In this document: positions 13,201-60,401 of the stretch, one piece after another
How the letters are laid out: each line of letters begins with the position of its first letter
Position numbering within the stretch: the first letter of the stretch is position 1
The notes under the pieces: generated by a model
The model's input: the letters and a program-made list of their open reading frames with translations, nothing else
What the model was told of the DNA's origin: nothing
The model's database searches: none
Made by a program: the position numbers and the translations under genes
Assembly: GCA_000165345.1 (NCBI GenBank)
Contig: CM000434.1
Span: 992,001-1,056,000, forward strand
DNA: 64,000 nucleotides
Direction: 5' to 3'

Positions 13201-16200
13201 CCAAAGATTGAATTCACAGAGTGGAAATGTCATGGTGGATTCTTTTGTGCTGCTGCTGTATATATTGCTGAGGATTACATTGATTCAATTGCTGCAGGAG
13301 ACGTAATGGCTGATTGTGATATAAAGACTATTAACCCAAAGCTATATCAAGAGACTCTAGATCTTCTGGAAGTTTCTGAGGAAGAACTTCAGTATATCCC
13401 ATCTTGGGTATCTACACAAGTTAATACTTATGGTCCAAACAATGTACATTTGGAGATGCCTTCTTCAGAAGTTGATCATCTTGCAATGTGTGTAGATATT
13501 GCAAACGTTACTGTATGTGACTCAACAACATGTGTATTTGGACATCCTCTAATGGATGCTGGTTTATCAATTGATCCTTACTCTTTATGGATGCTTGTTG
13601 ATTATCGTTGGGGTTGGCCTTTAGTAAACAGCTACTTCCAACTCCAAGAACCTTTGGTTCAAGCTTTTTCAGCAGATCCTTCTGTTATACTTTCTGGGAG
13701 GACTATTCTCACTCCTTCAGCTCAAAAGCTACTCAATTCATTATCATTCAAATCTTTACGAGATTCTATACCAAAGTTTTGGAGCTTATTATTCGATATT
13801 ATGTTAGGACCAGATTTGGATTCTAAGGATCTTGATGCAATTCTACAAGTAGTTCCTCATCTTAGATCTCTATCTGCTAATATATTTCTTGAGATCCATA
13901 GGCTTTTGGAAGAATTTGGTATTTCTGAGGAATCTCAAGATCTTTTATTCTCCCAATCTGAGCTATACTCTGCTTTAGAACCTGATGTTAATCATTGTGA
14001 AATTAATAAAGATGATCTTCAAGATCAAGATCAAGATCAACAACATGATAAAGGCTGTCTAAAAGAGTATTTAAAGAATAACATTACAATCGAAGATAAA
14101 CTGGTACCTTATAATAAAGTAAAAATGATTTTATATCCTTCAATTCCTTCTCATCCTCCAAGCTTCCAACTAAATCAAAATGAAATCACTCCATCTTATA
14201 ATATTGCTCTAAACTTCATTAACAGGCTTCACATCCTTCTTTGGCCTCATCTTATACATTTTATCTATGAGCTTCTTCCTGTTGCAATTACTATCAGACT
14301 AAAAAGACTTCTTTTCAAGAGTAGTGACGACCTCTTATTTGATCCCAGACTTACTCCTGAAGATCTTTGTGCTAGATTCTTAACAGAATCCAAGTTTCTA
14401 TTAGAATCTAGCTGTTGTCCACTTAACTTGATTAGATTCTGTGATAACAAACAGCTTTTGAATGCTGCAATAAACCAGGTAGCAGCAGCTTTAGATATAC
14501 ATGGATCATCATATACAGCAGCTTCTTGTTCTTTATCTTGTCCTACTAATAGAATGATTGATAGATTTGCTTCAGAGCTTGGAAGTTCAAACTTTGTAGT
14601 CCCAATATTGGTATATATTACTCAAATATTACTTTCTGGAACATTATATAGAGTATCATCAAAATTACTTCCACCTGAAGCTTTGTATACTTGGCCTACA
14701 AGTTCTTCAAATCAAGAATCTTTGTCTTTAACAGGTATCGGGAATTTAATTAATCATAAAGATTCCACGCCTTCAAAACAGTCAACTGGATCAAAAAAGA
14801 GGAATTCTTCAAATAAGTCTTCTTCTGGTACAGCAAGTTCTAATGGATTAATTGTACCAAATCCACTCTCAGAAGCAATTCAACATCTTCAAGTGAATCA
14901 GGTATCATTCAGTCATATTGATCCTTATGTATTTATTCCTCTTCATACATTCCACGCTGTATCAACTCCTTTATTGGTAAACATCATCTTTGAAAATGAT
15001 CTTATAGGGAGGAAGTCTTTTGCATCTGAGAGTTTTCTATGTGCTTCCAGAGTCCTTCATGTAAATAGACTTGCAACAGTAAGACATTTATACTCAGCAA
15101 TAAGAAAAGTTCTATATCAACAATTTCTAGATACAAAGATTTCTAATAGTTTAGATACTCCAGATGTAACACCATTAGATACTCCTCAATCTAAGAATAA
15201 TAATGAACATAATACAATAGGAGGAAGACAACAATCTTCTGGTCATACTCATACTAATAAGAAGAATACAATATCAAATATTCCGATACCTATAGATTGT
15301 GAAGGTTTTGATTTAAGTTGGATACCAAGTAATCCATTGGATGTTTTCTGTCTTTACTCTTTAAGACCAGATACTGATCCAACAAGAAGAGGAAGACTTA
15401 AATATACTTATATGCAACCAAATGACTTTCTAGAGAATCATTATTATGGACCTCACAAATCTAATTATGTTACGTATTGTGATGTTGCAATTTTAATTTG
15501 TGTACCTCCAGAATTGAAGCTCCAAATACCTCCAGGATCTCAGAATTCGGATCATATAACAAAAAATTCTTCATCCCAAATGAATACAGTATCGGTATCT
15601 GGAGTAGGGGTACCGGGAAAAGCAGCAAGCTTAATGGGGTCAATATCAGCAGGAATTGGAGAATCTGATTCAGATTGTGCATGTTTGTATACTTGTCCAA
15701 GTCATATAGCTCATTCACCAGTATGTCAGAGTTCAAGGATGATAGAAAAGACTGTTCCAAAAATCGTCTCACCTTTATTCAAGGCTAAACTAATAGATCC
15801 TTTATGGTCAAGTACTAAATTCCCAATGAATGATGATTCAGTTGCTCCTCTTTTGATTTTTAAATGGTTTGATCAGACAACTTTGGATATTACACTGTTA
15901 AGTGCATCAATATGTGAAGCAAGAAAGTCTTTAAGAGATTGTATTGTTTCTTGGGTATTCCCTAGAGCAAGAAGAATGGGATTAATGCCTCAAAATTCTT
16001 CTAAAGAGACTCCAAATGCAGATGATTATACAGTTTTAGAGGAATGTCATATTAGAGTATGTCAAAATGTAAGAAGATGGACTTCATCAATAAAGAAAAT
16101 CAATAGAACAACAGGAGATGTATTTATTGTTCAAAAAAGATACAATAATTTGGGATCATCCCAACCTCTGATTTCTGATTGTTCATTTATATCACCCTTT

Positions 16201-19200: not shown

Positions 19201-21702
19201 TTATCAAATATTGTCTCAAATGCTTCAAATAGAATATTCTCAAAATGTCTTTCATCAGATGGAGGTGATTCTATTGCAAAATATAATGTTTGTGAACATA
19301 TCAAGTTTAAGAATTATAATAAAGGTTCTCCATCCACATTTTCTTTATGTACATGTATTTCAAAACCCGGTAACGTAAATAAGATTAGAGCTTATATGCA
19401 TCAAATTGGTCATACAATTGTTGGTGATTCTAAACATCTTGGTCAGAAACAACTAAGTTTGGATAGAAGATATTTTCCTAATATATTCTTTTATTGTACT
19501 CATTTGGAGATTCCTTTAATGCAAAATAATAATGTTAAAAAAGATGGTGATCATGAAATAGAGGAAAAGCGTGATGGGAATACAATAATATTGGATAGTA
19601 ATGCAATAATAAATAAAGAAAGTATTAAAGTTATGGCTCCAGTTTCAAGAGATATAATGGAACTTCTTGAGAATGATTTTGAAATTACAGAAAAGTTCTC
19701 AGATATGTACTTTTGTCATTTTTATAAGACTAATGTTGAACTTGAAAAGTTGGATAAAGCTGAAAAGACTTCACAAGTTACCCCTTCTGATGCTGATATA
19801 GAAACTAGAGTTGGGGATGATTTAGTAGAGTATAATGAAATTAAGGCTACAAATATGAAATCTGGTAATGTTATTATTAATGATGAAAAAGATAAAAGAA
19901 AATGTTCAGAAAGTACAGAAAATGATAATTTTGAGCCTCTTAGTATATCAAATACTCTGATAGCTTCTCTTCCTGGACTTGGATTTGGACTTACACCATT
20001 TCTTGGTATGCCTAATTCTCAATATGCTGCAAGTGTGAATTGTTCTCAAGATGAGAAATCATTGGAACGTAAACAAAACCAGCGATTATCATTATCTTCT
20101 TCTTCCTCCTCTTCTTCTTCCTCCTCTTCTTCCTCCTCTTCTTCTTCCTCCTCTTCTTCCTCCTCTTCCTCCTCTACTTCTTCTTCAGTTCATACTATGA
20201 TACCGCCAGATTCGGCTAGCTTATCTTCTCCAACTCCGGCATCAACTTTACATGCAAAGACAAATGCTGGAGTATTTACATCATTTGGATTTGGAAGGAA
20301 TTTTCTAACATCTTCTGTTGATAATTCAACAAACTCTGCAAGCATTGGAGGTGGGATTGGAAGAGTTGGAGGAGGAATTGGAAATATTAGAGGTGGAGGT
20401 ATATCATCTACTGGTGGTATGACAGTTAATAATACTGGTTTAAGGCATTTGGTATCTCAACACAACCAATCCGGAGGTGGAAATGGAGATGGAAGTAGTA
20501 TCATTAACAGCAATAGTAACAATAGTGGTAATAACAATAATAGTAGTTCTCTTCCTATAAAGACTCATCCAAGCTTGGTTTCTTGTCTTACAGAATTAAA
20601 CTCAAAATCAGATGGATCTGCACTGGGAATTGGACTAAGTACGAGCAATTTGGTGCCTGGAGGAGGAAATATCTTCCATCAACAAAACTTCATGCAGGGA
20701 ATAATGACAGGAGGAACAGGAGGAATAGGATTGGGAGGTATAGCAGGAAGTTTAGCAGGTGGAGCTGCAGGTGGGGTAACAGGTGGGGTTGCAGGCGGAG
20801 TGGCAGGTGGAGCTGCAGGAGGTTTAACAGGAGGTGGAGTAGCAGGAGTAGGAGTTTCACCATCACCAATTTTCCAACATCACGGGAACAATACAGCTGG
20901 AATTGTAAATAGTGGAAGATATGGAAGCTTAACAATGAACAGTGGTATTAGAATGGATGCAGGCACTGGTACGTTAGGTAATAATGCAGTACAAATGCAT
21001 CATCAACAGCATCAACAACAACAACAAAGTTCAGGGGCAAAACAGGGCTGGAATACTCAAGATCTGCTTCAAAATCCAAGATGGACTTCATCTGAAGTTA
21101 ATAACGATGGTTTTGGAGGTGGAGTCAATAGAATTGTAGGAGGAGGAGGAGGAGTCTCTGAAGAAATGAATGTAAATCAATGGAATAATGGAATTGGCGG
21201 GAATTTCAGAGCTTTAAACTCAAGAGGAATTAATAATTCTGGAGGATTAAACCTGTCAACAGTTAACTTGGTTACAGGAATAGGTATTGGCGGCAACATC
21301 GGTATCAATAGTAATATTGGTATTGGCAGTAATATTGGTAATGGAAATAGTACCACTGGATTAGGAAATATAAATGTAACAGAAGGTACCGGTATAACAA
21401 TTGGATCAGGAGTAACAATGGGACCAGGAGTAACAATAGGACCAGGAGTAACAATAGGACCAGGTTTATGGGGACAACATGCTGCCCAACAGCAACCCTC
21501 AATCATTGTTGATCCTCCGTCTCAGGGGAAACATTCGTCAATGCAACAACAAATTGGAGGAATTCCCAATATTGTCTCAAATCTACATGCCAAAAACATA
21601 CAAGACGGAATTAGTTCCCAAAGATTTGATACTTTTCCTCATGAAAGGGGTGAAACTACTGAGCATTTGGAATCTAGACAAGGAAAGAAATCTCCATTTT
21701 AA
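10243..21702 (+). CDS. giant multidomain protein (3819 aa): MATH domain + degenerate USP-like region + low-complexity tracts + C-terminal RluA-type pseudouridine synthase-like domain
   Basis: Single 11.46-kb ORF. MATH/TRAF-like block (YIDFPIRNFWKI…GFVDDEGTVLIRGRAEP). USP-like Cys-box and His-box analogues with catalytic residues not obviously conserved (…FVHLLYHIKEFRRAIF…; YSLYGVIIKEGDASG…WFRICDGLVERL). RluA motifs ILVNNDDLCIILKPPFWYCPIEG … QYIFLCHG … KIRAYMHQIGHTIVGD … FFYCTHLEIPL. In-frame microsatellites. Alternative start MVRNGD at 10285. Confidence 0.8.
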   Translation: MIILKEACVKKKDQMVRNGDQSLINISSTDKSDKWDLKHKNEEIPTRKVVEESSLEYYERSSRSASHFGKVYNGLYPVGPRLPSFSSSNKRSRLQSTYNEDEFSSSSANSSVINSDDKMYIDFPIRNFWKIAKTPIDMESPQIGYCRGFYYRLLVHPRGGSCNDSESSYLSVFLEALYHESYPDDWIFPNVRFQLSVVNFLDPKANITSWAHWTFSHDAMSRGWHKMVSHVRLTRAAGFVDDEGTVLIRGRAEPPFPRIWSRSPKCRPWSIWGTLPYRNASALAQYKPCITGTRQDQNQGCSDKHVITTNLCAFHELAENSNRGLLSCRAESLSSESCGISQHQLEGSLLVGSTPLSIMDRLLWSSSNLFVPTLRSQLNVDFVPAFVHLLYHIKEFRRAIFSWNPRIPKKCSTNQNPNSSERSKKHDPNHSPASFIDPQQPRTSIIEALQKTFAYMTLWPIAYSVKRSIRHSWQERIATDPSLVDDWCFSKCCKCGGEFDSYPNSPEMTDTSSLHTSNSRNGRHCASDKSIPTQSSIFKEKECLRCKLPPVPDCSWIMKALYMNDLQRIDVADPLMRFHCFIFGAIYLESAHAILQIAAHHRKSIPQNFRGSEKFANLESSEGKDEFERSELTDGEYKEFRESDERSLGSQRTRDQEQSRGQGRGQGQSQNQDQDQNQYYDHGQTQGRDMNISISSIFDLEEDLRVPTEFDNTCRVLFSSVAEDGGDCFSDYSTCCLRAKHIHSIPKAIEHYAHRFKRFPETLFIYFTPPKNAKKGELFDVPFRLEASFLLENSNVNVNTGIGVVDQDFKGIKSDNRGQNTNQQEDIQPLVTEQFQDDEVIDESTPDLKGKVRGNKEATGSESGQNTTSVVLDNNDSALCVESNDEYSLEYVSEDGFDENQDTSIQSDSQDDTTGHKSDVKSPNSENFFGSSSQYMEKWYSLYGVIIKEGDASGSNSTRSVHQLLIRPEEDGPWFRICDGLVERLIPKIEFTEWKCHGGFFCAAAVYIAEDYIDSIAAGDVMADCDIKTINPKLYQETLDLLEVSEEELQYIPSWVSTQVNTYGPNNVHLEMPSSEVDHLAMCVDIANVTVCDSTTCVFGHPLMDAGLSIDPYSLWMLVDYRWGWPLVNSYFQLQEPLVQAFSADPSVILSGRTILTPSAQKLLNSLSFKSLRDSIPKFWSLLFDIMLGPDLDSKDLDAILQVVPHLRSLSANIFLEIHRLLEEFGISEESQDLLFSQSELYSALEPDVNHCEINKDDLQDQDQDQQHDKGCLKEYLKNNITIEDKLVPYNKVKMILYPSIPSHPPSFQLNQNEITPSYNIALNFINRLHILLWPHLIHFIYELLPVAITIRLKRLLFKSSDDLLFDPRLTPEDLCARFLTESKFLLESSCCPLNLIRFCDNKQLLNAAINQVAAALDIHGSSYTAASCSLSCPTNRMIDRFASELGSSNFVVPILVYITQILLSGTLYRVSSKLLPPEALYTWPTSSSNQESLSLTGIGNLINHKDSTPSKQSTGSKKRNSSNKSSSGTASSNGLIVPNPLSEAIQHLQVNQVSFSHIDPYVFIPLHTFHAVSTPLLVNIIFENDLIGRKSFASESFLCASRVLHVNRLATVRHLYSAIRKVLYQQFLDTKISNSLDTPDVTPLDTPQSKNNNEHNTIGGRQQSSGHTHTNKKNTISNIPIPIDCEGFDLSWIPSNPLDVFCLYSLRPDTDPTRRGRLKYTYMQPNDFLENHYYGPHKSNYVTYCDVAILICVPPELKLQIPPGSQNSDHITKNSSSQMNTVSVSGVGVPGKAASLMGSISAGIGESDSDCACLYTCPSHIAHSPVCQSSRMIEKTVPKIVSPLFKAKLIDPLWSSTKFPMNDDSVAPLLIFKWFDQTTLDITLLSASICEARKSLRDCIVSWVFPRARRMGLMPQNSSKETPNADDYTVLEECHIRVCQNVRRWTSSIKKINRTTGDVFIVQKRYNNLGSSQPLISDCSFISPFISAALSSNSYSGIVDDFPPSLSRDELLAIITSMNTKKINQLGIFNTPIKGISGSNSPTVLDLKKNSLDRTWPISASPMGGDPKLTFSQFFDILKHGDDSGDFLASQIEDLDIYSYQNSSCKISMEDISSLKSGTDQGNSLNQAEKGNHSVTGVSNETTSIDLKSVTTFTNTNTVQILNANNSNQNDLSAISSNSLIGGTGVAGTSGGGSKKKKKASKKLPGIPSLQKSSIVKALNAQRRLESQSTRLVDNDSADLSGLRGRDQGQDHDQDLDHDRSQGQNQNQDQGQGQGQAQDHDQDQDQHSNQYNEEESKQDNKGNEKRKEGHKEKDVERSDIKVNNLSTALKKDANSPESMDKAGLEAKPDSSSPSSSFSYGTVSLRPEKLQKVPDELFEIALESFSGDSFSVSSLVGRLLERVICRFSEISNRKKEDSSSHISETFSDSNNRSEFLLWMNGLNDLVCNLSLIGGSKKIDQTLIQREIIQLLRRLLSTETSSQQLSSVASESLSSIIKYLEDGNLEPCFKSIIYNIPQVGSGSRSLISVPGLLKTIPKYGNNFNKESFNNYYNNMYNILVPVQQRSAILFTILLIKSLTILSPSSIIEMHLGLLPKTDYIRSNSLIKSTGYKSIKSFVLLAYFLNVFGVKDAMDVIISIQGVKGFENLLIRMASYTIGLRQYATSNFIIENIEKLHDHHPSLDWVSSLRITDKLAISEEVLKKTLETICDHFSTKSNSAFAQNKKTLDLIQNVEGIVRFSDINDFAYEQAQLLEMRKVGKDSPQILVNNDDLCIILKPPFWYCPIEGTGMDEDEQDEEDKQDEQEESVEYEEELEYKEDETDGDKIENQRNDDKKRRKVKKKLDHDNIQDENNKDEKTGIRKDLKNKVSSIIIKEEDNDSEIEVEKDNNNSNTDEFEEILNSGRMESILNFLKLRCKGIGLDLRGNEKMIKRIGLKLGVEIGGPILILKNEDMEKYYNKNEILNQIHCQYIFLCHGQIQNSSDRNVSLSNIVSNASNRIFSKCLSSDGGDSIAKYNVCEHIKFKNYNKGSPSTFSLCTCISKPGNVNKIRAYMHQIGHTIVGDSKHLGQKQLSLDRRYFPNIFFYCTHLEIPLMQNNNVKKDGDHEIEEKRDGNTIILDSNAIINKESIKVMAPVSRDIMELLENDFEITEKFSDMYFCHFYKTNVELEKLDKAEKTSQVTPSDADIETRVGDDLVEYNEIKATNMKSGNVIINDEKDKRKCSESTENDNFEPLSISNTLIASLPGLGFGLTPFLGMPNSQYAASVNCSQDEKSLERKQNQRLSLSSSSSSSSSSSSSSSSSSSSSSSSSSSTSSSVHTMIPPDSASLSSPTPASTLHAKTNAGVFTSFGFGRNFLTSSVDNSTNSASIGGGIGRVGGGIGNIRGGGISSTGGMTVNNTGLRHLVSQHNQSGGGNGDGSSIINSNSNNSGNNNNSSSLPIKTHPSLVSCLTELNSKSDGSALGIGLSTSNLVPGGGNIFHQQNFMQGIMTGGTGGIGLGGIAGSLAGGAAGGVTGGVAGGVAGGAAGGLTGGGVAGVGVSPSPIFQHHGNNTAGIVNSGRYGSLTMNSGIRMDAGTGTLGNNAVQMHHQQHQQQQQSSGAKQGWNTQDLLQNPRWTSSEVNNDGFGGGVNRIVGGGGGVSEEMNVNQWNNGIGGNFRALNSRGINNSGGLNLSTVNLVTGIGIGGNIGINSNIGIGSNIGNGNSTTGLGNINVTEGTGITIGSGVTMGPGVTIGPGVTIGPGLWGQHAAQQQPSIIVDPPSQGKHSSMQQQIGGIPNIVSNLHAKNIQDGISSQRFDTFPHERGETTEHLESRQGKKSPF
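12210..12275 (+). repeat. in-frame (GGY/CAA/GAT)n-type microsatellite encoding GQGRGQGQSQNQDQDQNQ in giant ORF
   Basis: caaggccgaggtcaaggtcaaagccaaaaccaagatcaagatcaaaaccag. Confidence 0.8.
16981..17105 (+). repeat. second in-frame GAT/CAG/GGT trinucleotide repeat (encodes DQGQDHDQDLDHD…QNQNQDQGQGQGQAQDHDQDQDQ) in giant ORF
   Basis: gatcaaggtcaagatcatgatcaagat…cagggtcagggtcagggtcaa. Confidence 0.8.
20092..20188 (+). repeat. (TCT/TCC)n microsatellite encoding a ~30-residue poly-serine tract in giant ORF
   Basis: tcttcttcttcctcctcttcttcttcctcc… continuous for ~95 nt. Confidence 0.9.
20707..20855 (+). repeat. Gly-rich GGxAGG hexapeptide-type repeat (ggtggggtaacaggtggggttgcaggcggagtggcagg…) in giant ORF
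   Basis: Repeated ggNgSNgcagg units encoding GGVAGGVAGGAAGGLTGGGVAGVG. Confidence 0.75.
21403..21465 (+). repeat. tandem 18-nt repeat (ggaccaggagtaacaata x ~3.5) encoding GPGVTI repeats
   Basis: ggatcaggagtaacaatg ggaccaggagtaacaata ggaccaggagtaacaata ggaccagg. Confidence 0.9.
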
Positions 21703-21850: not shown

Positions 21851-21884
21851 ATGCATGCAGAACTTTTGGCGCCACCCCACACTA
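21851..21884. promoter_or_regulatory. composite ATGCATGCA + E2F (ttttggcgccacc) + G-box-like (ccccacacta) module upstream of gene 22221
   Basis: Contiguous 34-nt GC-rich module. 20-mer almost identical to module at 53535-53558. Confidence 0.6.
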
Positions 21885-22220: not shown

Positions 22221-24395
22221 ATGATTCCGAATGGATCAAAACTTGAGCTTGGAACTTTAGTATTAGGTTCTGAAACAGTAAGAAAAGGATGGAATGCATT
22301 TTCAACTTTAAATAATGCAATAGATGGAGTTAGAAAAGTGGCAAATGATGTAGTAGGATATAATAATTCAACAACAATAGGAAATGAGAATTATAAAGGA
22401 GAATTGGAAAATAATAAAATAGTAAGTATAATAGAGAAAATAGAAGTAGGACAGGTATATGGAAGATTAAAAAATGATTTAAAATTAATACAAATATTTG
22501 AAAGAGAAACAAAATCAATGGGAACTTTAGAAATTATTTCAATTAATAATAATTTAGACTTTTCATATTTAAATATAAGATGGAGACGAAAAATGGGTGA
22601 AAAATTAATTGATATACAAGGTAAAGATTCAAGCCTAAAATATAACTTAACAGCTGATGATGTAGGAACAATTATTATTATAGAAATATATCCAAAAGGA
22701 GAAGCAAATGATCCTTTAAATATTACATATTGTGAATTAGGACCTATAGAAATAGATGATACAACAAAGATATCTTTATCAAAATCTTTAAAAACAGGTC
22801 TTATTAGATTCCCTGTAGAAATTATAAAAGATGAATTTGAAAGCTTAATAAATCCAGAAAATTCTTCAAAAGAATTAAAAAATGATGAAGATTCAATAAT
22901 GACAAAAGATATTTTGGTAGTAACAAATGATGATGTTAAAGTAATTAAAAATGGAATGACAAGTTCAAATTCAAACTTTGAAAAGAAAATTGTATGGTCA
23001 GCAAAATACTTTGGTGGTAATATACATATTCAATTAAATCATCAATCATCATCTTGTCAAGAATTCACTCTTTGTTCTGGATACGATATTCATAAACAAA
23101 AGATATCAATTAAAACAACAAGTAGAAATGCTAGAGATATTGCAGCTTTAACAATTAGATGTTTAAATATTAGACACACAATATCATTAGAAGCTATAAT
23201 TGGAGGTGGAGTTTCCTGGATCCCAAAAAACTCAACAGTAAATGATTCAGATAATATGGAAATTGAAGAAAATAGAAAATTAAATATTTTTGCTTATATA
23301 GGACGTCTAGAAGATGAAATTGCAAATTTAGAGAATAACAAGGAAAAACTGAACGAAGATAAAAAACTTCTTCAAACTGAAAAAGCTATTTTAGAAAATG
23401 AATTAGCTGAGACAATTTCAGCTTATCAAGATATAATTTCTCAATATCAACAAGAAAAAGATACTAAAACCAATACTAACAAACAAACCAAAGAATTTAA
23501 CATAGAATTTGGGCTTGAAAAGAACACAGGAATTAAACAATCCAACAATAGTCCAAACAAAAAGTCGATTCAATCAAATTCAAATAATTCTCATAAATCT
23601 ACCTTACTACATGGTTACAGTGGTACCTATCCTATAAATAATTCAAAACAAGATGGATCTAGCAATTCAGAAAATAATAATAACTCACAGAAAAATGAAT
23701 CCATTCAACAAAATTCCACTGAAATTAATAAAATAATTGAAGAAAATGCTTCTCTTAAAGAGTCCATTTCTCAACTTAATAAAAAATTTGAAAATGAAAT
23801 TGGCGCCAAAGAGTCAATGGAGCGCATGCATGCAGAAATTGAAGAATTGCGCGGGAGATTGGAAAGGTCGGAAAAAGAAAAGGAAGACTATAAAAGATTA
23901 AATGAAAAATTAGATGGCGAAATCTTTGTTAAAAATCAAGAATTAGAGAGTATTAAGTTAGGACAATGTTTAAATTCGACTAGAAATATAGAAAAGATAC
24001 AGCAATTGGAAGATCGCATATTGGATCTTCAGAGTCAGAATTCTGAAAAACAACAAGCTATTCAAACTTTATCAACAGAAAAATCAAAGCTTCTAAAAGA
24101 CTTTTCATCATTAAAATTAGACTTTGATAAGCTTAAGGAGCAACATAATCAACTAAATAAGAGATACATAAGCTTAAATCTTGAGAATTCAAGAATTCAT
24201 GATCAAGAAAAATCATCAAAATTTGACAATGAACTCATGAATTCTGACTCTCAAAACAAAAATGACCAAGCTGTTGATATTACAAAACTAAAAAGTGAGC
24301 TTGAAGATTATAAGAAAACTAATTGTGAGCTTAACCAGACTATAACTCAACTTAAAACAAGAATACGAAGGTTAGCAATGATCAATTCTACTTAG
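22221..24395 (+). CDS. hypothetical protein, 724 aa, with C-terminal coiled-coil region
   Basis: Long ORF. C-terminal 300 aa heptad-rich (LEDRILDLQSQNSEKQQAIQTLSTEKSKLLKDF…). E2F/G-box/GCATGCA module 350 bp upstream. Confidence 0.65.
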   Translation: MIPNGSKLELGTLVLGSETVRKGWNAFSTLNNAIDGVRKVANDVVGYNNSTTIGNENYKGELENNKIVSIIEKIEVGQVYGRLKNDLKLIQIFERETKSMGTLEIISINNNLDFSYLNIRWRRKMGEKLIDIQGKDSSLKYNLTADDVGTIIIIEIYPKGEANDPLNITYCELGPIEIDDTTKISLSKSLKTGLIRFPVEIIKDEFESLINPENSSKELKNDEDSIMTKDILVVTNDDVKVIKNGMTSSNSNFEKKIVWSAKYFGGNIHIQLNHQSSSCQEFTLCSGYDIHKQKISIKTTSRNARDIAALTIRCLNIRHTISLEAIIGGGVSWIPKNSTVNDSDNMEIEENRKLNIFAYIGRLEDEIANLENNKEKLNEDKKLLQTEKAILENELAETISAYQDIISQYQQEKDTKTNTNKQTKEFNIEFGLEKNTGIKQSNNSPNKKSIQSNSNNSHKSTLLHGYSGTYPINNSKQDGSSNSENNNNSQKNESIQQNSTEINKIIEENASLKESISQLNKKFENEIGAKESMERMHAEIEELRGRLERSEKEKEDYKRLNEKLDGEIFVKNQELESIKLGQCLNSTRNIEKIQQLEDRILDLQSQNSEKQQAIQTLSTEKSKLLKDFSSLKLDFDKLKEQHNQLNKRYISLNLENSRIHDQEKSSKFDNELMNSDSQNKNDQAVDITKLKSELEDYKKTNCELNQTITQLKTRIRRLAMINST

Positions 24396-30423: not shown

Positions 30424-30485
30424 TCAAAAAGATCCACTTGATAATTTTAAGTACGAAATTTCCTGTTTTAAAATAAATTATTACT

Positions 30486-30506
30486 ATTATTATTATTATT
30501 ATTACT
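30486..30506. repeat. (ATT)7 microsatellite in 3' spacer
   Basis: tattattattattattattat. Confidence 0.85.
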
Positions 30507-30743
30507 TTCTACTAAAAAAAGAATCTAAAAGACTAAGGATGTGTATTAAAGCTAGAAATGCATGCATGCATGCAATTATAACGGTATCGATTAAACCAGC
30601 TTAAGAATTTTCTTTTCTTGAGGGTGAAAAAAAAAAATTCACTCCTAGATTATCTCATTTTCTGTTGTATTCCTTTCTTAGAGTGTTACAAAAGTCCTGA
30701 ATATACTAAACTTAGTAAACATGTAATTAAAAAAATCAATAAT

Positions 30744-50207: not shown

Positions 50208-53200
50208 CTACCAATTAAGATCAAGCCTTTTGATTTGCTCCCCAATAGAATTCACATCCTTTCTAACTTTGGTTCTTCTATAAAATATAGGGCAATCTCT
50301 TGAAGTACAAATAATATCTTGGAAAGCACTTCCTTGGCACCTTTGGCACTGAGTCCAGAGTGAATTATATTCAATTTCTTTTTCTCTGAATTCATGAAGT
50401 TTATTAATAAGTACCGAACATTCCATATTTTCTTGTTTGGAACAATCTTTACAAAGTGGACCTTCCTTTATAATTGTTTTACAATTCATACACTGAAGAC
50501 CCTTCTTTACAAATCCTGCTAGAGCGCCTCCTGTAACACTCAAAACAGTTACAGATCTTGTATGGCTTCCTGAAAAGAGTTTTTCAGGATCCTTCATGAC
50601 TCCTTCAAAAACTCGAATTACTGAAGATTTTAGTGTATCTACATAATGTTGTGTATCAATTGCGAGATTATTTTCGAGTACATATAATGGATCTTCAGCG
50701 CGATCATATTGAGGCTGACCTTTAGCACCTTTAATTACTACATAAGAGACTCTGTCTCCAATATTTGGTGCAGATCCTGGGTCTCTTAATTTAAGCCTTT
50801 TTGCTAACTCAACATGAGCGAGTTTTGCAGTATAATCATCTTTTCCAAGACTCTTACTAACTACCAACAAAGACAAGTCTATTTTATTCTTTAGTAAGTC
50901 TGAAATTACATTTCTGGTATATTGTTTGGCTGCTTCAACATCTTTATCAACTAGAATCTTCTTTAAGACAGTATCAACCACTTTTTGTACAAGAAGACAG
51001 TTATCTCTTCTAACAGTCTCAATTCCCTTACAATCAATTCTCTCATGGAATTGTGGATTCTTAAAAAGTACTCCAGCATATCTTTTTTTATTCATCAATA
51101 AGAATGGACAATATACTTTTTCAAATTCTAATTTAATTGGTTTTACAAAGAGCTTACTTATTGAAGTTGCAGCTTCCAAACCAAGTTTCATTGCTTCTCC
51201 AATATCTGATACTCCAAACTGAATCATTACAGAATCTGTGTCACCATAAACAACTTTGGCATCAGCAGAATAACCATTTTCTTTTCTATATATCTTTTCA
51301 ACCTCATTTTTGGTAATATCAATCATTGCTCTACCATATGAAGTAATACTTGTTGAAAGTTCCAAGCATGGAAGTTGGCCTCCAGCCACTGCACCAGTAT
51401 ATCCATAAACACTATTTGCTGAAGTCTTTAAAGCAAGTTGTCTACCATTTAAAATAGAGATTAATGTTGGATCAGTTGCTTCCTCCATTTCTTTTTTGGC
51501 TTTCTTTCTTGCAGCTATAAGCTCTTCAACAATTAATGGAAGTATACCCTTTCTGACTGAAGATAATACAAAAGAATGACCAGTTGGAGAAGTCTTTCTT
51601 AAATCTTCTGGTACATTTTTAAGATTAAGTGGAGGAATTAGTGTAGAATAGCAAATATTGTGAGCAATCATAATTGAGGGATACAAAGAAGCAAAATCTA
51701 AAGTAGAAATTGGGTCCTTATAAAATCCTTTTAAAGGTTCTAATACAGTTGCTCCTTCATATTGGTTATCCCCATCAGATTGATTCTTTACTGTTGGCAT
51801 CAAGAAGTTGGTAGACTTACATTTCCTCAAGATTTGGCTTGTAACTTTAATTTGTTGGCCTCTACTTAGCAAAATATCTATTGTGGTACCCGTTACTCTT
51901 GCCATTTCTATAATATTTGGGAATAATTTCAAATGTTTCATAAGCCTTAATGGAAGTATTGAATCTTTGAGACAATATATTGCAATTCTCTTTCTTGTTT
52001 CAGGATTTCCATCTTGTAAGCCTCTAATCATTGAATAATGAACATCTTCTTTTTGTTCTTTTAGAAAGTTTGTGGAAACGTAGTTCAAAGAATAGCTTTT
52101 TAATTTGTGCTCTCTACGAATAGTCTCCAAAATATCCCATAGAATCCTTCCTTCAATATTAATCAATTTACTCTCATGAGTTCCAAATGCTCTGGATGAA
52201 AATCTGGTATCTTTACTTGTAATTTTTGTTTTAGCTAGCCTTGTAAAGAAGAAAAAATCATTCAATTGGAATAATTTAGCTCTTTCTAATAGGTAATTCA
52301 TATCAAAATTGATGCAATTATAACCTGTAATGACATCTGGATCTAATGCCAATAAAAAATCCTTCCATGCTAATAACATATCTTTTTCAGACTCAAACCA
52401 AAATACAAAAGCTTCAGCTACTGATGCACATTCTTTGAGAGTAAATATTACATTACAAATGGATTCAGGGCTATCTAGAAGTGTTACTACTGAAGATATT
52501 TGGATAACAGAATCTTTATGTGGCTCTGGAAATCCTACTCCAGACTCTGTAATGCATTCAATATCAAAAGAAAGTATTCTTATTGGTGGTAAAGTTGCCC
52601 ATTTCCCTGAGCTTCCAAGCACTATCAAATCGTCATAGAAAAGATCCATTTCTATTTGGCATGAACTAATTCTTTGAAATGGGCTTATCCTTACAAAACC
52701 TGCATCTTTAAAATCAAATTCTTGTCCTCCAAGTCTAATATACGATTTTTGCTTCGGTATCGATACCCATGATCCGGTACTTAAATCTCTATCAATTAAA
52801 TATCTTAGAATAAAAGGTATATTTGCTTCGTAAGCTTGAGGAATACAATCTAAATTCCCATTTTCTATCATAGATCTACAGGTGGGAACTAAGTTTGGTA
52901 GTTGTAGAGTGATTTTGTAGAACTGGGAATCTTCTATTTCTGAATCGCCTTTGTAATGCATTATTGATTCTTTTTTTAAAACTTGTACATTAAGGACATT
53001 TTTTCCTTCTGTTGCTCCTAATCCACTTTCAATTTGAGTTTTAATCTTTTCTGGATTAGGAGGTGTGCTTTTAGGTACTTCACAGTAGAGATAAGGAAAG
53101 AAACAGTGAATATTTATTAAAACTGTTATTCCGGTGCTGGTTGACCCAAATAGTTGTATTATTGGTGTTTCAATGTTGTCTTGGTTAGTCTTATTAGAAA

Positions 53201-53462
53201 ATACATTGTAAGAGCTTGAATTATACTTTTCATAAAACTCAGGTGATGGATTTTGGGAAGGAAATTTCCCAGTTGAAAACTTGGCATCCAATATGCAAAA
53301 GTCTAAATTATCATCTTTTGAAATATTCCCACATTGTGGATCAAGACTAACTTTGTTTCTTCTCCATCTATCCAGACAATTCTCAAAAAGCTTCCGAGAA
53401 GCTTCTGCATTCTCTTGGGTGAATCCTATGGTAGAAATTATTTCTTCCCCCTTTTCCATCAT
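50208..53462 (-). CDS. POLD1: DNA polymerase delta catalytic subunit (family B)
   Basis: 1084 aa. Exonuclease motifs (FDIE, YNCINFD), polymerase motifs (DFASLYPSIM, KxxxNSxYG, YGDTDS), C-terminal CysA/CysB zinc modules. Collinear with human POLD1. Confidence 0.95.
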   Translation of the reverse strand: MMEKGEEIISTIGFTQENAEASRKLFENCLDRWRRNKVSLDPQCGNISKDDNLDFCILDAKFSTGKFPSQNPSPEFYEKYNSSSYNVFSNKTNQDNIETPIIQLFGSTSTGITVLINIHCFFPYLYCEVPKSTPPNPEKIKTQIESGLGATEGKNVLNVQVLKKESIMHYKGDSEIEDSQFYKITLQLPNLVPTCRSMIENGNLDCIPQAYEANIPFILRYLIDRDLSTGSWVSIPKQKSYIRLGGQEFDFKDAGFVRISPFQRISSCQIEMDLFYDDLIVLGSSGKWATLPPIRILSFDIECITESGVGFPEPHKDSVIQISSVVTLLDSPESICNVIFTLKECASVAEAFVFWFESEKDMLLAWKDFLLALDPDVITGYNCINFDMNYLLERAKLFQLNDFFFFTRLAKTKITSKDTRFSSRAFGTHESKLINIEGRILWDILETIRREHKLKSYSLNYVSTNFLKEQKEDVHYSMIRGLQDGNPETRKRIAIYCLKDSILPLRLMKHLKLFPNIIEMARVTGTTIDILLSRGQQIKVTSQILRKCKSTNFLMPTVKNQSDGDNQYEGATVLEPLKGFYKDPISTLDFASLYPSIMIAHNICYSTLIPPLNLKNVPEDLRKTSPTGHSFVLSSVRKGILPLIVEELIAARKKAKKEMEEATDPTLISILNGRQLALKTSANSVYGYTGAVAGGQLPCLELSTSITSYGRAMIDITKNEVEKIYRKENGYSADAKVVYGDTDSVMIQFGVSDIGEAMKLGLEAATSISKLFVKPIKLEFEKVYCPFLLMNKKRYAGVLFKNPQFHERIDCKGIETVRRDNCLLVQKVVDTVLKKILVDKDVEAAKQYTRNVISDLLKNKIDLSLLVVSKSLGKDDYTAKLAHVELAKRLKLRDPGSAPNIGDRVSYVVIKGAKGQPQYDRAEDPLYVLENNLAIDTQHYVDTLKSSVIRVFEGVMKDPEKLFSGSHTRSVTVLSVTGGALAGFVKKGLQCMNCKTIIKEGPLCKDCSKQENMECSVLINKLHEFREKEIEYNSLWTQCQRCQGSAFQDIICTSRDCPIFYRRTKVRKDVNSIGEQIKRLDLNW

Positions 53463-53534
53463 CTTTGTTTCTTAATACCCCCTGTTTTCTTTTTTTATTT
53501 TGACAAGAGAAAACTCCTTTAGTTTAAGGCAAGC

Positions 53535-53558
53535 AAAAGGCGCCACCTCCCCACACTA
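53535..53558. promoter_or_regulatory. E2F + G-box module aaaaggcgccacctccccacacta in 233-bp bidirectional promoter of DNA pol delta and RecQ
   Basis: Only GC-rich element between divergent ATGs 53462(-) and 53696(+). Near-identical to 21864-21884. Confidence 0.65.
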
Positions 53559-53695
53559 TGTTAATTCTTATTGAAATGAATTATTTAAAATATAGTCAAT
53601 TTTATGTTTTTAGGTATTTTTGCATCAAGAAAAAAGGGACAAGAGTATTATTTCTTTTTTCCTTTAATATTGTGAGAAATAATATAACCCAATAA

Positions 53696-56668
53696 ATGGA
53701 AGATGAATCAGAATTTCAAGAAACTCATAAGAGTAGTTTAGAGTCGGAATTAAGATGGTATAAGGAGAATTTTGAACAAATAAAAAACGATTTACTCTCT
53801 AAATTGAATAAAGGCAGAAGTTCTAACTCAGAAATATCATGTGTGCTGCAAAATGAAACAAACAATATCGGTAAAATCTTTTTCGGAAAACCTATCAGAG
53901 ACTTTTCCTCGTTTTCCAATGTAATTCGAAATGTTTCAAAAAAAATTACCTTCAATAGTGATAGCCATGCATGCACACACCCGCATGCAAACACCGGTAT
54001 TGAAAATACATACGTGGCAGAGATTTCGGATAATCATGTGGACAACATAATTAGTAATCACAAAAAAGTTGAAGAGTTGTGTAAGGAAGAGAATGAAGAT
54101 GAAGTTATAGAATTGAAAGTATTGGGATGTGGAGGAAGGGAAGTAGAGGAGATTGTATCAAGCTCATCTTCTAGCAAGGAGAATTTATATACAATTTTGA
54201 ATATCCTGCCAAATTCTGACTTTTCAACGGTTAAAACAAAGTCCAGAAAGAATACAACAAAGAAAAGCTCTTCAAACGAGAAAAAGTTATTGAATTGCAG
54301 GAGAAAAGTTCAGGTCAATGAGAAGGACCAAGATTGGGAAAGGGAAGATTTTGAATGGTCAGAGGATATGAAAAGAATCAATGAGCAAGTTTTTGGCAAT
54401 GAATCATTTAGGTCAAATCAAAGACAGATAATGAATGCAGTGGTTTCTCAAAGGGACGTTTTTGTTATGATGCCAACAGGAGGAGGAAAGTCACTTTGTT
54501 TCCAGCTTCCTGGCCTTTTAAAATATAACAACCCTGCAAGTGTGACGGTGGTTATCATGCCCTTAGTTGCACTTATGGTTGACCAAATTGAACAGTTGAA
54601 TATACTCGGCATTAAATGTGCAAGTTTGAATAGTAATCAGTCTGCAGATGAGTTGAATCATATTACATCCTTACTGAAGAAGGGAGATCCTGAAACATGT
54701 CCTGCCTTTCTATTTGTAACTCCCGAAAAGCTTAAGCATTCAAAGACTTTGTTTTCACTACTAAAGCAAATTAATGATGAATCAAGATTATTAAGATTTG
54801 CAATTGATGAGGCTCATTGTGTTTGTCAATGGGGATTTGACTTTAGACCTGACTATATTCAACTTTGTAAACTCAGAGAAGAGTTCCCAAATGTCCCGAT
54901 AATAGCATTAACTGCCACTGCCACTCATAGTATTTTGAGTGATGTAATTAAACAACTAAAGATGCGATCTCCTGCTATCTTTAGTCTTTCTTTTGACAGA
55001 CCAAATCTAAAATATGAGGTAAGAGCTAAAAGTGGAAGTAAAAAAAAGATGCTCAATGAGATCTGTGAGCTGCTTAGATCTCCACGGTTTTGTAGATCAA
55101 CAAGTATTATCTACTGTTTGAGCAGAAATGAGTGCGAAGAAGTCTCCAAAGATTTGAACAAGGAAGGAATTTCTGCAACATATTACCATGGATCCATGAA
55201 AGAAGATAAGCGGAATCTGGCACAAAGAAGATGGATGAATGACGAAAAGCAGGTCATGGTAGCAACCATAGCATTTGGAATGGGAATCAATAAAAAAGAT
55301 GTTAGACTTGTGATTCATCTATCCATGCCAAAATCCCTTGAAAACTATTACCAAGAAAGTGGTAGAGCTGGAAGAGATGGACTAGAGTCTAAATGTATAT
55401 TATATTACTCTTACAAAGATGTCTCTAGATTACAAACTTTAGCAGGAGTTAACATTGAAAAACCTTCCAAAAAGTATTATACCTCCAAGAATAACTCTTC
55501 AAATAACAAATCCACAATTGATGGACTTTTAGGTATGGTGAAATATTGTGAAGAACAATATAAATGCAGAAGAACAATGATTCTAAGCCATTTTGGAGAG
55601 GATTTTAAAGGAAAATGTAAGGTTAAATGCGATAATTGTATGAGATCTGAATTAGAAAAGCCGACTAACATTAATGTGGAAGGTCTTGCTCGTCAAGTCT
55701 TTCACTCAGTAAGAATGAGCCTTCAAGAACAGGCAAGAGCTACAAAAACCTATGGATTTTTAACTTTATCTAGCTTAGCAGAAATCTTAAAAGGAAAGAA
55801 AAAGAAAGATAAGCAATCAAAAGGCTCCCTTAAAGACTGTATTGGTCTTCTTAATGATACAAATATTTGGAAGCCAGGAAATCTGCAAAGATTCCTGCAT
55901 TTGTTTATTATTAATCAGCTTTTTTCTGAGAATTTGGTTCAACTCAAAAATGGAGTATCAGTTGCTTCTCTTAAAATTGATAAACAAGCAGAAAAACAAG
56001 ATATCTATGAACTCGACTTTTCTTGTTTCAAAGCCTTACAGTTAGAGTCCATCTACTCTACTCCAATTCCAGAATCAAATAATGTTAATTTGGGCCATAA
56101 TATTAACTCATCTCTTTCCTTGTATTCTTTTAACTCAAAACAATCTTCTTCAGATATTAATTTTGCTAATAATGGCTTAATATCTAACTCTAACAACATA
56201 GAGAACTTGAATCACGATAAGAATCTCAAGGAATCCAGAAGAAAAAGACAATTCATTGATAAAGGATCTCCCCATTCAATAGTTAAGAAGAAGCAGGCAA
56301 ATTTGATGTATCAAGAATCTAACAGTGAAAATGAACAGCTTAAAGATTTTAGAAATCAATTACTTTTACTAAGAAGAAACTTAGCTGCAGAGTTTGGAAT
56401 CTCTAATACCAACTCTATTGCATCAAAGGAAGCTATTGATGCTCTTGTTGAGAATCTCCCGCTTTCATTAGATGCTCTTAAAACACTTCCTGGATGGGGC
56501 GCAAGGCAAAAACTTGAAAGATTTGGTCTCAGATTCATCTCAAAGGTCAGAGATTTTGTTGATTCCAAGTCAACCAATATGTTTTATACCGAAAAGAATT
56601 ATACTTGTCCAATTGACCTTATTAATCCTGAAGATCTGGACAAAGAACTAGATCTTATTTGGCAATAA
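53696..56668 (+). CDS. RecQ-family ATP-dependent DNA helicase
   Basis: 990 aa. Helicase core (MPTGGGKSLCFQLPG, DEAHCVCQWGFDFRPDY, RQ-C zinc region), C-terminal HRDC-like domain. Non-conserved 220-aa N-terminal extension. Alternative in-frame ATG at 54368. Confidence 0.9.
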   Translation: MEDESEFQETHKSSLESELRWYKENFEQIKNDLLSKLNKGRSSNSEISCVLQNETNNIGKIFFGKPIRDFSSFSNVIRNVSKKITFNSDSHACTHPHANTGIENTYVAEISDNHVDNIISNHKKVEELCKEENEDEVIELKVLGCGGREVEEIVSSSSSSKENLYTILNILPNSDFSTVKTKSRKNTTKKSSSNEKKLLNCRRKVQVNEKDQDWEREDFEWSEDMKRINEQVFGNESFRSNQRQIMNAVVSQRDVFVMMPTGGGKSLCFQLPGLLKYNNPASVTVVIMPLVALMVDQIEQLNILGIKCASLNSNQSADELNHITSLLKKGDPETCPAFLFVTPEKLKHSKTLFSLLKQINDESRLLRFAIDEAHCVCQWGFDFRPDYIQLCKLREEFPNVPIIALTATATHSILSDVIKQLKMRSPAIFSLSFDRPNLKYEVRAKSGSKKKMLNEICELLRSPRFCRSTSIIYCLSRNECEEVSKDLNKEGISATYYHGSMKEDKRNLAQRRWMNDEKQVMVATIAFGMGINKKDVRLVIHLSMPKSLENYYQESGRAGRDGLESKCILYYSYKDVSRLQTLAGVNIEKPSKKYYTSKNNSSNNKSTIDGLLGMVKYCEEQYKCRRTMILSHFGEDFKGKCKVKCDNCMRSELEKPTNINVEGLARQVFHSVRMSLQEQARATKTYGFLTLSSLAEILKGKKKKDKQSKGSLKDCIGLLNDTNIWKPGNLQRFLHLFIINQLFSENLVQLKNGVSVASLKIDKQAEKQDIYELDFSCFKALQLESIYSTPIPESNNVNLGHNINSSLSLYSFNSKQSSSDINFANNGLISNSNNIENLNHDKNLKESRRKRQFIDKGSPHSIVKKKQANLMYQESNSENEQLKDFRNQLLLLRRNLAAEFGISNTNSIASKEAIDALVENLPLSLDALKTLPGWGARQKLERFGLRFISKVRDFVDSKSTNMFYTEKNYTCPIDLINPEDLDKELDLIWQ

Positions 56669-56947
56669 CTTATCATAGTTATCTCTAATTTGCTTAATTA
56701 AACTATTTTTCTTATAAGTCTCTTTAACCAGATAATCATAATATTTATTCTTTACTAGAATCCATTTAATGTTATTAATATGGCAATTTGGCGGGAATTT
56801 TATGCAATTCTTATTTGTTGTGCATGGCCTCGTTTGGCGCCCAGTCTGTGTATAAATGAGGTATAATGTTCAACTTGTATTTTAATAGAAGTTGTTGGTT
56901 CAAATTTGTAGATCCAAAGTTCGTTATGATCTTATTGCATTTCCAAG

Positions 56948-57952
56948 CTAGGGATCAATGGGTTGTTTATTCAACAAGATTCCATTGAAAGATACACATA
57001 GTTTGTTGACGGATTGTCCATGTTCTAAAAAGCTGGTATTTTGTGTTTTAGATCTACTATGATATTTTGGAGCTGGAGAGAACTCTACTAAAGGGTAATT
57101 CTCAAGCTTTTTTCCTCTGAATGAAATGGTTTCTATTGATCTTCGATGTCTAAAATTGTATTTATCTTTAGTCTCAAGCTCTATTCGATCTTTATTTTTG
57201 TTAACTAAATTAGTCTCCTCTTCACTATTGGAGGAATTCTCATCATTAGAAACTTCTAAGCAGCTTGAATCAGAAGTGCAAAGATCAGTGTTTGATTCTG
57301 AGCTTATTAATAAAATTGGCTCTTCGTTCACTTGAGTATATTTACAAACATTAATTTCTTCTTGGATATTATTCGAGAAATAATGTTTAATTTTTGTCTT
57401 GAGATTATTTGCTGAGCTGTTCAGTGAATCTATTTTGTTTAATAAATCTAATTTATCTTTTTGAGAAGGCTTTTCTTTCTTTGAGATTGATATTTCCTTC
57501 AAAATATTATTTGTTTTTTTAACAAGATTGGAGTCACTTTTTCCTTCGAAAAGTTTACAACTAATCCTAAAATGAGTACAATTCTTGAAAATATAGTTTA
57601 ATTTCCTTAGTTCAAGTGTATGAAAGTGGACATCCTCCAACTCACAATCATTCTTAAGACTTATGAAAGCAAGAAACATCTTTGAGTAAGAAAGCACTAA
57701 AAATTTGTAATAAGCATCAAGTTTGTTCATGTTTGTAATTCTTTGTATTTCACTACTCATTGTTATTTTATAAGCATTGGATTCATTTCTCAAGCTAATT
57801 TCCCTGAATATATTTCCAAGTTTATTTTCAATCCTTTCACTGCATTTTTGTGAGCTTTCTGTGACTTTTCTTTCCTTATTATTTTTGAGCTTTTGTAAAA
57901 CTAAATTGTTATGTTTATAGCCATCAAAAGCTATTTTGTCAGAAATCTCCAT
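56948..57952 (-). CDS. hypothetical protein, 334 aa, Lys/Asn/Ser-rich, no recognisable domain
   Basis: 1-kb uninterrupted ORF on minus strand in 70% AT DNA. No homology recognised. Confidence 0.5.
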   Translation of the reverse strand: MEISDKIAFDGYKHNNLVLQKLKNNKERKVTESSQKCSERIENKLGNIFREISLRNESNAYKITMSSEIQRITNMNKLDAYYKFLVLSYSKMFLAFISLKNDCELEDVHFHTLELRKLNYIFKNCTHFRISCKLFEGKSDSNLVKKTNNILKEISISKKEKPSQKDKLDLLNKIDSLNSSANNLKTKIKHYFSNNIQEEINVCKYTQVNEEPILLISSESNTDLCTSDSSCLEVSNDENSSNSEEETNLVNKNKDRIELETKDKYNFRHRRSIETISFRGKKLENYPLVEFSPAPKYHSRSKTQNTSFLEHGQSVNKLCVSFNGILLNKQPIDP

Positions 57953-58024
57953 GTTTTTACTTTGTTCCTTCCTTTCACTCTAAATTAATCCTTGAATTTT
58001 AAAATTTATATGTATAAACAAAAA

Positions 58025-58065
58025 TATATGAATATATATATTAACCCAATATATATATTCATATA
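58025..58065. repeat. perfect 18-bp inverted repeat (tatatgaatatatatatt / aatatatatattcatata) with 5-bp spacer aaccc
   Basis: Arms are exact reverse complements. Lies 72 bp upstream of minus-strand ATG 57952 in a 1-kb divergent spacer. Confidence 0.9.
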
Positions 58066-58964
58066 AATATATATATTGGATTAATATGTAAGTTTATTAA
58101 AAAACATTATTTTTTGAGAAAGCCAGAATGAATTCTAGAGCTTTTCAATTGAAGAAAGAAAGCGAAATGTATACAATTTGAATATTTTGACAAATTTTAA
58201 TCTTCATGTAAGTTTTAATTAATTTACCGGTACTTTTGCCTTGTCATTAATATGTGCACCCGAGTGTGCACACAGCATTGCCTCGATGTGATTTCAAAAG
58301 AATTATTAAAAATAATAATTGAGTGAAAATCTGGCAAATTTAAGACATGTCTACACAAATATTTTGAGTAATCTTTTCTTTTCCCGTCAAATGCTTAATT
58401 TCATATTCATCAACCATTTTCTTTCACCCAAATATGTAATCCTATGTGGGCAATATTAAATTAATTTAATAGAATTTTTCGTATTCAACAAGTAATGAAC
58501 TTTTTAAGACTAAATTAAGTTTTGATATTATTTCTATCGCAAATACCTAAATAAATATTTACTAGCTTACTCTACAATTCGACTTTAGTTGTTTTATCTC
58601 CTATCTTTTTCTCCACCCCAATTTTTTTTTTTATTTAATTGTTGACATTTACCGGTACATGCAATTTTGCTTGCATGAAATTCATGTGGATAATGCATGA
58701 ATTTAGAAAAAAAATATTCAATACCGGTGAAGGATTTAATGTGGATGCATGCAATAATGTTATTATGGGACTAAGTAGAGGAAATTTTCGTCAAATAATG
58801 AATGAGAAAAAAAATAAGTAGAAAGTGGAAAAGGAAAATAGGAATAATTATTGTTAATTTTGTATATTAGTGTAGAAAATAATATACATATATGTAAAAG
58901 AGAACAAAAAGAGTTAGGTTTTTTTTAAGAGTTTAACCATAGTTGTTGATTTTTATTAAAAAAT

Positions 58965-60387: not shown

Positions 60388-60401
60388 TTGGCGCCAAATT
60401 T
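60388..60401. promoter_or_regulatory. E2F palindrome ttggcgccaaattt 54 bp upstream of small Tim ATG
   Basis: TGGCGCCA core. Supports reality of the 95-aa gene. Confidence 0.55.

Follow-up and report, generated by a model that had tools for sequence, protein, structure and literature searches.

A conserved E2F-like/G-box element between the head-to-head DNA polymerase delta and RecQ helicase genes of Cryptosporidium

The 233-bp spacer between the divergent genes of the DNA polymerase delta (Pol delta) catalytic subunit and a RecQ/BLM-type helicase carries a two-part element which, judging from its conservation between species, is almost certainly a functional cis-element. The favoured reading, to which a probability of about one half was assigned, is a compact bidirectional promoter with the module GTGTGGGG-N3-TGGCGCC (in the sense direction of Pol delta), the two halves of which would be occupied by two factors. 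The element was judged to be real, ordinary and largely known. New are the cross-species conservation of the E2F-like and G-box composite with nearly fixed spacing, and the evidence against simple co-regulation, the shared promoter and the divergent stage expression of the two genes being mismatched. All positions refer to the window, i.e. the whole analysed stretch of 64,000 nucleotides.

Results

Arrangement of the Pol delta and RecQ genes

The window is AT-rich (~30% GC) and contains long intronless ORFs. The features of the locus are the following:

50208-53462, minus strand: DNA polymerase delta catalytic subunit (C. parvum cgd6_4410), intronless ORF of 1084 aa, assigned by Pfam and homologues
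53463-53695, no strand: divergent spacer of 233 bp, which must hold both promoters and both 5' UTRs
53539-53545, minus strand: E2F-like core TGGCGCC (plus-strand GGCGCCA), at a distance of 76 nt to the Pol delta ATG; the start of GGCGCC is 157 nt before the RecQ ATG
53549-53556, minus strand: G-box GTGTGGGG, of the motif 2 type DTGTGGGG and an exact match to the ApiAP2-type G[T/C]GGGG
53595-53603, plus strand: a further block of weaker conservation, GTCAATTTT, which resembles a CAAT box, ~95 nt 5' of the RecQ ATG and with a putative function
53696-56668, plus strand: RecQ/BLM-type helicase (C. parvum cgd6_4420), intronless ORF of 990 aa, assigned by Pfam

The 1084-aa product matched the Pfam families DNA_pol_B (1.2e-142), DNA_pol_B_exo1 and zf-C4pol, the Pol-delta-type C4 zinc finger. 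The closest proteins were catalytic subunits of Pol delta from Cryptosporidium species, the cluster representative of C. meleagridis at 98%, and a Cryptosporidium assembly carries the gene of the identical protein on a chromosome of 1.31 Mb. DEAD, Helicase_C, RecQ_Zn_bind and HRDC domains were detected in the 990-aa product. The gene identifiers were assigned by product name: cgd6_4410 from the supplement of Oberstaller 2013 (PMC3734150) and a table of Mullapudi 2007 (PMC1779779), and cgd6_4420, 'RecQ bloom helicase', from the tables of Oberstaller 2013 and Tandel 2019. The ORF coordinates and Pfam domains thus agree with the first-pass annotation of the window, in which the two genes had been described as divergent with start codons 233 bp apart. 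At the start of RecQ, a TAA stands in frame immediately 5' of the ATG, and the start Met and the N-terminus align from Met1 in 8 species.

The locus has the geometry of a bidirectional promoter, with divergent starts 233 bp apart (<1 kb) and an intervening stretch free of genes: positions 53463-53695 contained neither an ORF nor a tRNA nor an Rfam family. The spacer is the shortest among the six divergent spacers of the window. The head-to-head order of RecQ and Pol delta was retained in 8 of 8 Cryptosporidium species, with spacers of 198-303 bp, and of ~680 bp in C. ryanae and C. xiaoi. In the latter two (locus coordinates 3319-4000) Pol delta is annotated 66-69 aa longer, and the ATGs of Pol delta and RecQ are ~297 nt and ~370 nt, respectively, away from the composite element. 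The long spacer reflects either an expanded promoter or mis-called start codons.

Sequence of the composite element

The only GC-rich element of the spacer is GGCGCCACCTCCCCACAC (53539-53556), composed of the E2F-like core and the G-box. The 16-nt window with the highest GC content, GGCGCCACCTCCCCAC at 53539, reached 81%, compared with 44% for the runner-up, which bears out the earlier description of an E2F-type site as the sole GC-rich element between the genes. The two cores are parted by a variable spacer of 3 nt (2 nt in C. felis). Octamers of the DTGTGGGG type occur 3 times in the window vs 0.26 expected.

The E2F-like motif (5'-TGGCGCCA-3'; motif 3 DTTGSCGCCH) is the most over-represented upstream motif in C. 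parvum (PMC3734150). The palindromic core [C/G]GCGC[C/G] is present at the locus as GGCGCC at 53539-53544, and the minus-strand sequence GGTGGCGCCT agrees with 9 of the 10 positions of motif 3 and with 7 of the 8 positions of TGGCGCCA. A scan of the window with the canonical TTTSSCGC gave 17 matches (0.98 expected), none of them at the Pol delta/RecQ site. In the sequence of the site, AAAAGGCGCCAC, only one side has the consensus T/A flank, and the minus-strand T-run comes after the core; the orthologous sites of C. felis, C. ryanae and C. xiaoi, TGGCGCCAA, likewise lack TTT. Among the 12 GGCGCC sites of the window it is the weakest and the sole one without T at -1 (AAGGCGCCAC vs TTGGCGCCAA elsewhere). 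The label of a canonical E2F site was therefore rejected on the TTTSSCGC failure. The earlier term 'E2F-type' holds for the GGCGCC core and the motif 3 match, i.e. for the genus-specific TGGCGCC variant only.

Conservation between species

The orthologous loci of C. meleagridis, C. canis, C. felis, a Logan-assembly species, C. ryanae, C. xiaoi and C. serpentis were compared. In seven intestinal species the element reads GTGTGGGG-(AGG/ACT/AAT/TT/AAG/AAT/AAT)-TGGCGCC: the two cores do not vary, in contrast to the 2-3 nt that part them. In an alignment of 5 species, 15 of the 18 columns of the composite were invariant vs 29 of the 215 remaining spacer columns (Fisher p = 8e-10). Outside the composite, the identity to the window was 47-55% for C. 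canis, C. felis and the Logan species. Since both cores were kept across seven species against a background of ~50%, the composite is selected and not a compositional accident. The single E2F-like/G-box composite proposed in the first-pass annotation is in this respect upheld as a selected cis-element.

The distances from the module to the start codons were similar in four species, 62-77 nt for Pol delta and 140-145 nt for RecQ. In C. serpentis, of the gastric lineage, CCCCAC was found at a similar position; GGCGCC is absent, and only a degenerate TTTaCCCGC stands instead. As a control, the E2F-like site of the neighbouring ProRS promoter was followed and was retained only in the closest relatives.

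The second conserved block, GTCAATTTT, was the second-best 15-nt window by invariant columns, 7/15, in the 5-species alignment. The five parvum-clade species have kept it; C. ryanae, C. xiaoi and C. serpentis have not.

E2F-like sites in the window

GGCGCC was detected 12 times in the window vs 0.42 expected, and 11 of the 13 [CG]GCGC[CG] sites lay outside long ORFs, in a fraction that makes up 17% of the window (binomial p = 2e-7). The excess over expectation together with the intergenic bias shows the E2F-like motif to be a genuine signal of the genome. Of the 14 promoter-bearing spacers, 11 contained an E2F-like core (SGCGCS or GGCGGG), or 12 when TTTCCCGC upstream of ProRS is counted, usually 34-110 nt from the nearest ATG. 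The genes adjoining these spacers encode a COG7-like protein, a CS-domain/GPN-loop GTPase pair, TRAPPC8, myosin, a histidine-phosphatase-family protein, ribosomal protein S5 (RPS5) and proteasome Rpt1.

In published work the motif was found in expression clusters whatever their time of peak expression (PMC3734150), and 161 out of 200 clusters have it upstream (PMC4117751). It also dominates the ATAC-seq peaks of sporozoites; in C. parvum, bidirectional promoters account for more than half of these peaks (bioRxiv 10.1101/2025.01.17.633476). Because of the occurrence in 11/14 spacers of the window and 161/200 published clusters, beside unrelated genes, the E2F-like sites do not mark a replication regulon, and the earlier designation of the locus as a textbook arrangement for an E2F-driven replication regulon is not supported.

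A second E2F-like and G-box composite, TTTTGGCGCCACCCCACAC, was detected at 21865-21882, with a spacer 3 nt shorter than that at Pol delta/RecQ. It lies ~340 bp upstream of the ORF 22221-24395(+) (724 aa, no Pfam match), with TGCATGCA beside it at 21852. A general E2F and G-box composite was considered and rejected: there are only two cases in 64 kb, their spacing is unlike, and the motifs were not positively associated over the 200 published clusters.

Some E2F-like sites were located where no promoter is expected. TTTGGCGGGAAT, TTTGGCGCCC and TTGGCGCCAA, at 56790-56841 and 60390-60395, lie in two spacers between convergent 3' ends; the published tables skip cgd6_4430 and cgd6_4450, and small or antisense transcripts may start at these sites. 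The GGCGCC at 56836, in the 3'/3' spacer downstream of RecQ, was kept in C. meleagridis and C. felis only. A triple overlapping TGCATGCATGCATGCA was found at 30559-30574 in the convergent spacer 30424-30743, downstream of the TRAPPC8-like and ribosomal protein S5 genes. Three further cores (11120, 11536 and 11992; one of them a full TTTTTGGCGCCATTT) occur in the 5' part of the ORF 10243-21702, which encodes 3819 aa, begins with TTG and has its first in-frame ATG at 10285. The true start of this ORF may be further downstream, or the ORF may contain an internal promoter.

Expression of Pol delta and RecQ

In the fuzzy clustering of Oberstaller 2013 (PMC3734150), cgd6_4410 belongs to cluster 45 and cgd6_4420 to cluster 112. 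According to Table S4 of that work, the motifs over-represented in cluster 45, to which Pol delta belongs with a membership of 0.999, are the G-box (motif 2) and the E2F-like motif 3. Those of cluster 112, in which RecQ has a membership of 0.73, are AP2_1 (motif 1), the G-box (motif 2) and motif 14; E2F is not among them. The motif common to the clusters of both genes is thus the G-box and not E2F. From the same table, motif 3 was counted in ~14 of 35-38 G-box clusters vs 114/200 overall, i.e. there was no excess co-occurrence.

The RT-PCR series of Mauzy 2012 (four replicates, seven time points) was used to compare the two profiles with 231 pairs formed from 22 neighbouring genes. Pol delta showed a small 6-h shoulder followed by a 24-72 h plateau, and RecQ a monotonic rise of ~300-fold to 72 h. 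Both genes peaked at 72 h and neither at 6-12 h (early merogony). The Spearman correlation of the pair was 0.86 (top 9% of the 231 pairs) and the Pearson correlation on log medians 0.68 (top 26%). RecQ tracked its convergent 3' neighbour cgd6_4440 better than Pol delta (r = 0.98).

In the sorted stages of Tandel 2019, RecQ was expressed at 5.05 log2 CPM in asexual stages vs 10.04 in females in vitro, with a logFC of +4.99 (~32-fold). It is among the top 500 female transcripts and is included in the 'meiosis and DNA repair' heat map. In the 1477-gene differential list of the same study (3099 genes tested), cgd6_4390 is followed by cgd6_4420; the absent cgd6_4410 was either unchanged or removed by a low-count filter. 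In view of the modest correlation rank, the different clusters and the female induction of RecQ, the two genes are therefore loosely and not tightly co-regulated, and RecQ behaves as a female/meiosis gene. The first-pass annotation had predicted co-induction in merogony and had named uncorrelated profiles as the contrary outcome. The Spearman value of 0.86 speaks for the prediction, and the separate clusters, the 72-h peaks and the female rise of RecQ alone speak against it.

The convergent neighbour of RecQ, cgd6_4440 (56948-57952, an uncharacterised protein of 334 aa), is among the most female-specific genes, +7.7 log2 (Tandel 2019). In its upstream spacer (57953-58964, 1012 bp) no E2F-like core and no G-box were found, only TGCATGCA at 58746. 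Female expression of cgd6_4440 with neither motif upstream indicates that the G-box is not needed for female expression.

GCATGC was looked for in the Pol delta/RecQ spacer of every species compared and was not found. In the window, 11 of the 13 TGCATGCA sites are intergenic. An AP2_1-type pair, TGCATGCA...GCATGCA, lies in the RecQ coding region (53968-53989, +273 nt) and was kept in four species (that of the window, C. meleagridis, C. canis and the Logan species). The pair encodes the conserved peptide HACTHPHANTG, so coding constraint can explain its conservation, and AP2_1 was rejected as the source of the female expression of RecQ.

Discussion

Proposed function of the module

The spacer would form one short nucleosome-free bidirectional promoter region on Cryptosporidium chromosome 6. 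The TGGCGCC half, a near-universal promoter and open-chromatin element in the genus, would be bound by the E2F/DP heterodimer as the presumed binder. To our knowledge, Cryptosporidium is the only apicomplexan genus retaining E2F/DP. [quoted passage not shown] The genes assigned to E2F are cgd1_1560 and cgd6_1430, and those assigned to DP cgd7_3650 and cgd8_1850. The GTGTGGGG half is predicted to be bound by a G-box-binding ApiAP2. The candidates by in-vitro specificity are the early cgd2_2990, cgd1_3520 and the female-specific cgd8_810, the AP2 domains of which bind the G-box on protein-binding microarrays (PMC4117751). In the single-cell atlas, cgd8_810 is specific for the female clusters 16-18.

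The E2F half could provide basal or asexual-stage activity, and the G-box half could set the stage timing, with a late rise of both genes and a strong pre-meiotic induction of RecQ in female gametes. Its position makes the module promoter-proximal for Pol delta; for RecQ, an additional use of the nearer CAAT-like block GTCAATTTT is probable. From the single conserved block of the spacer we infer that the module is shared by the two genes. RecQ may share it, since the two clusters have no motif other than the G-box in common and no other G-box lies upstream of RecQ.

Some observations count against the two-part model. Pol delta has the G-box and yet is not female-differential, so either the G-box is inactive there in females or the low-count filter removed the gene. 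In addition, the composite at 21868 differs in spacing, C. serpentis lacks GGCGCC, and there is no excess of G-box/E2F co-occurrence at the level of clusters.

A more specific version, which we consider improbable as it stands, is a composite of fixed geometry on which E2F/DP and a lineage-specific ApiAP2 (e.g. the female-specific cgd8_810) would bind side by side or compete. If true, a generic E2F promoter would be made stage-gated, for asexual replication in the case of Pol delta and for pre-meiotic female induction in the case of RecQ. No E2F-AP2 combinatorial element would have been defined in an apicomplexan before it, and it would have been kept through the whole intestinal Cryptosporidium radiation.

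Alternative explanations

The reading proposed originally was a single E2F/DP site giving S-phase-type co-induction of Pol delta and RecQ in merogony, as a node of an E2F replication regulon. The GGCGCC core is indeed present and conserved, an over-representation of E2F-like motifs has been described for the upstream regions of DNA replication genes in C. parvum (PMC1779779, PMC3734150), the E2F/DP transcripts peak early in asexual development, and the two genes are positively correlated in the RT-PCR series. However, the same motif stands beside unrelated housekeeping genes in most promoter spacers of the window and in most clusters genome-wide, and the site is without the TTTSSCGC flank. The expression data point away from it as well: the genes belong to separate clusters, that of RecQ being without E2F over-representation, both peak at 72 h instead of 6-12 h, and RecQ is a gene of the female/meiosis set with Pol delta not differential. 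An E2F regulon at this locus is therefore unlikely. Two back-to-back one-way promoters, with the composite belonging to Pol delta only and RecQ depending on GTCAATTTT, on TGCAT at 53620 or on 5' coding sequences, may be the correct description, although we doubt it. The usual distance of 34-110 nt between site and ATG suits Pol delta (76 nt) better than RecQ (157 nt), the E2F motif is found in the cluster of Pol delta only, female induction differs between the genes, and a second conserved block exists on the RecQ side. That block was not kept in C. ryanae or C. xiaoi, though, and TGCAT at 53620 was not kept even in C. meleagridis. Moreover, the distance of the module to the RecQ ATG is also closely kept (140-145 nt in four species), and the RecQ cluster is over-represented for the G-box, the only one upstream of RecQ being that of the composite.

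It is very improbable that the conserved block is something other than a transcription-factor module, i.e. a 5' UTR RNA element, a replication or chromatin-boundary element, or a chance survivor. The block would sit in the 5' UTR if the transcription start of Pol delta lay upstream of it. Both halves, however, match motif families strongly biased to intergenic DNA, the G-box is bound by AP2 domains in vitro, and the chance survival of 15 invariant bases in 7 species against a background of ~50% is negligible. There is also no Rfam family or tRNA in the region; Rfam at the gathering threshold and ARAGORN found nothing in the whole window. A permissive scan of 53300-53900 gave one sub-threshold lncRNA match, KCNQ1OT1 (21 bits vs a gathering threshold of 70), which lies inside the Pol delta coding sequence and was rejected as chance.

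Significance of the locus

The Pol delta/RecQ locus is one of hundreds of promoters with an E2F-like motif and does not settle what E2F/DP bind or control. Added here is a clean footprint: across seven species, no spacer bases were kept other than those of the E2F-like core and the neighbouring G-box, and their spacing is fixed. The locus would be a reasonable construct for the combination of an E2F and an AP2 site. As a test locus for E2F/DP alone, for which it had been recommended earlier, it is poor, because its GGCGCC site is the weakest of the 12, lacks T at -1 and abuts the site of a second factor.

Comparison with known systems

The motif families and the membership of the Pol delta promoter are already known from the literature. 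The same promoter is included in the replication promoter set of Mullapudi 2007 (PMC1779779), where the upstream regions of 14 replication genes were mined, one of them being 'DNA pol delta, 234 bp upstream, cgd6_4410'. According to that study, all replication genes tested have a common G-rich motif upstream, and one sub-set has a motif with the core CGCCAA. In that work the region was not treated as shared with RecQ, cross-genus conservation and fixed spacing were not reported, and the comparison was made with C. hominis only, for which the upstream sequence of cgd6_4410 was unavailable.

The locus resembles other cases of the Cryptosporidium E2F-like upstream motif (Bankier 2003, Mullapudi 2007, Oberstaller 2013) in its GGCGCC palindrome, its intergenic position within ~100 nt of a start codon, its bidirectional promoter and the over-representation of the motif in cluster 45 of Pol delta. 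Unlike the usual motif, it has the consensus flank on one half-site only and is fused to a G-box at conserved spacing.

With the metazoan and plant E2F-DP site TTTSSCGC of G1/S promoters the locus shares the [C/G]GCGC[C/G] core and the adjoining DNA-metabolism genes. The targets of E2F in animals often have bidirectional promoters. E2F-DP recognises the [C/G]GCGC[C/G] core (Zheng et al. 1999, as cited in PMC3734150). In contrast to the metazoan and plant site, TTTSSCGC failed here, the motif is near-universal in the genus and not G1/S-specific, and the expression is late or female-biased; no Rb-type partner is known in Cryptosporidium (PMC3734150).

The second half of the module is an exact match to the apicomplexan G-box (G[T/C]GGGG; ApiAP2 proteins cgd8_810, cgd2_2990 and cgd1_3520), which is over-represented in the clusters of both genes. 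It differs from the general apicomplexan G-box, for which no positive association with the E2F-like motif exists across clusters, in being held, in seven species, at 3-4 nt from an E2F-like core.
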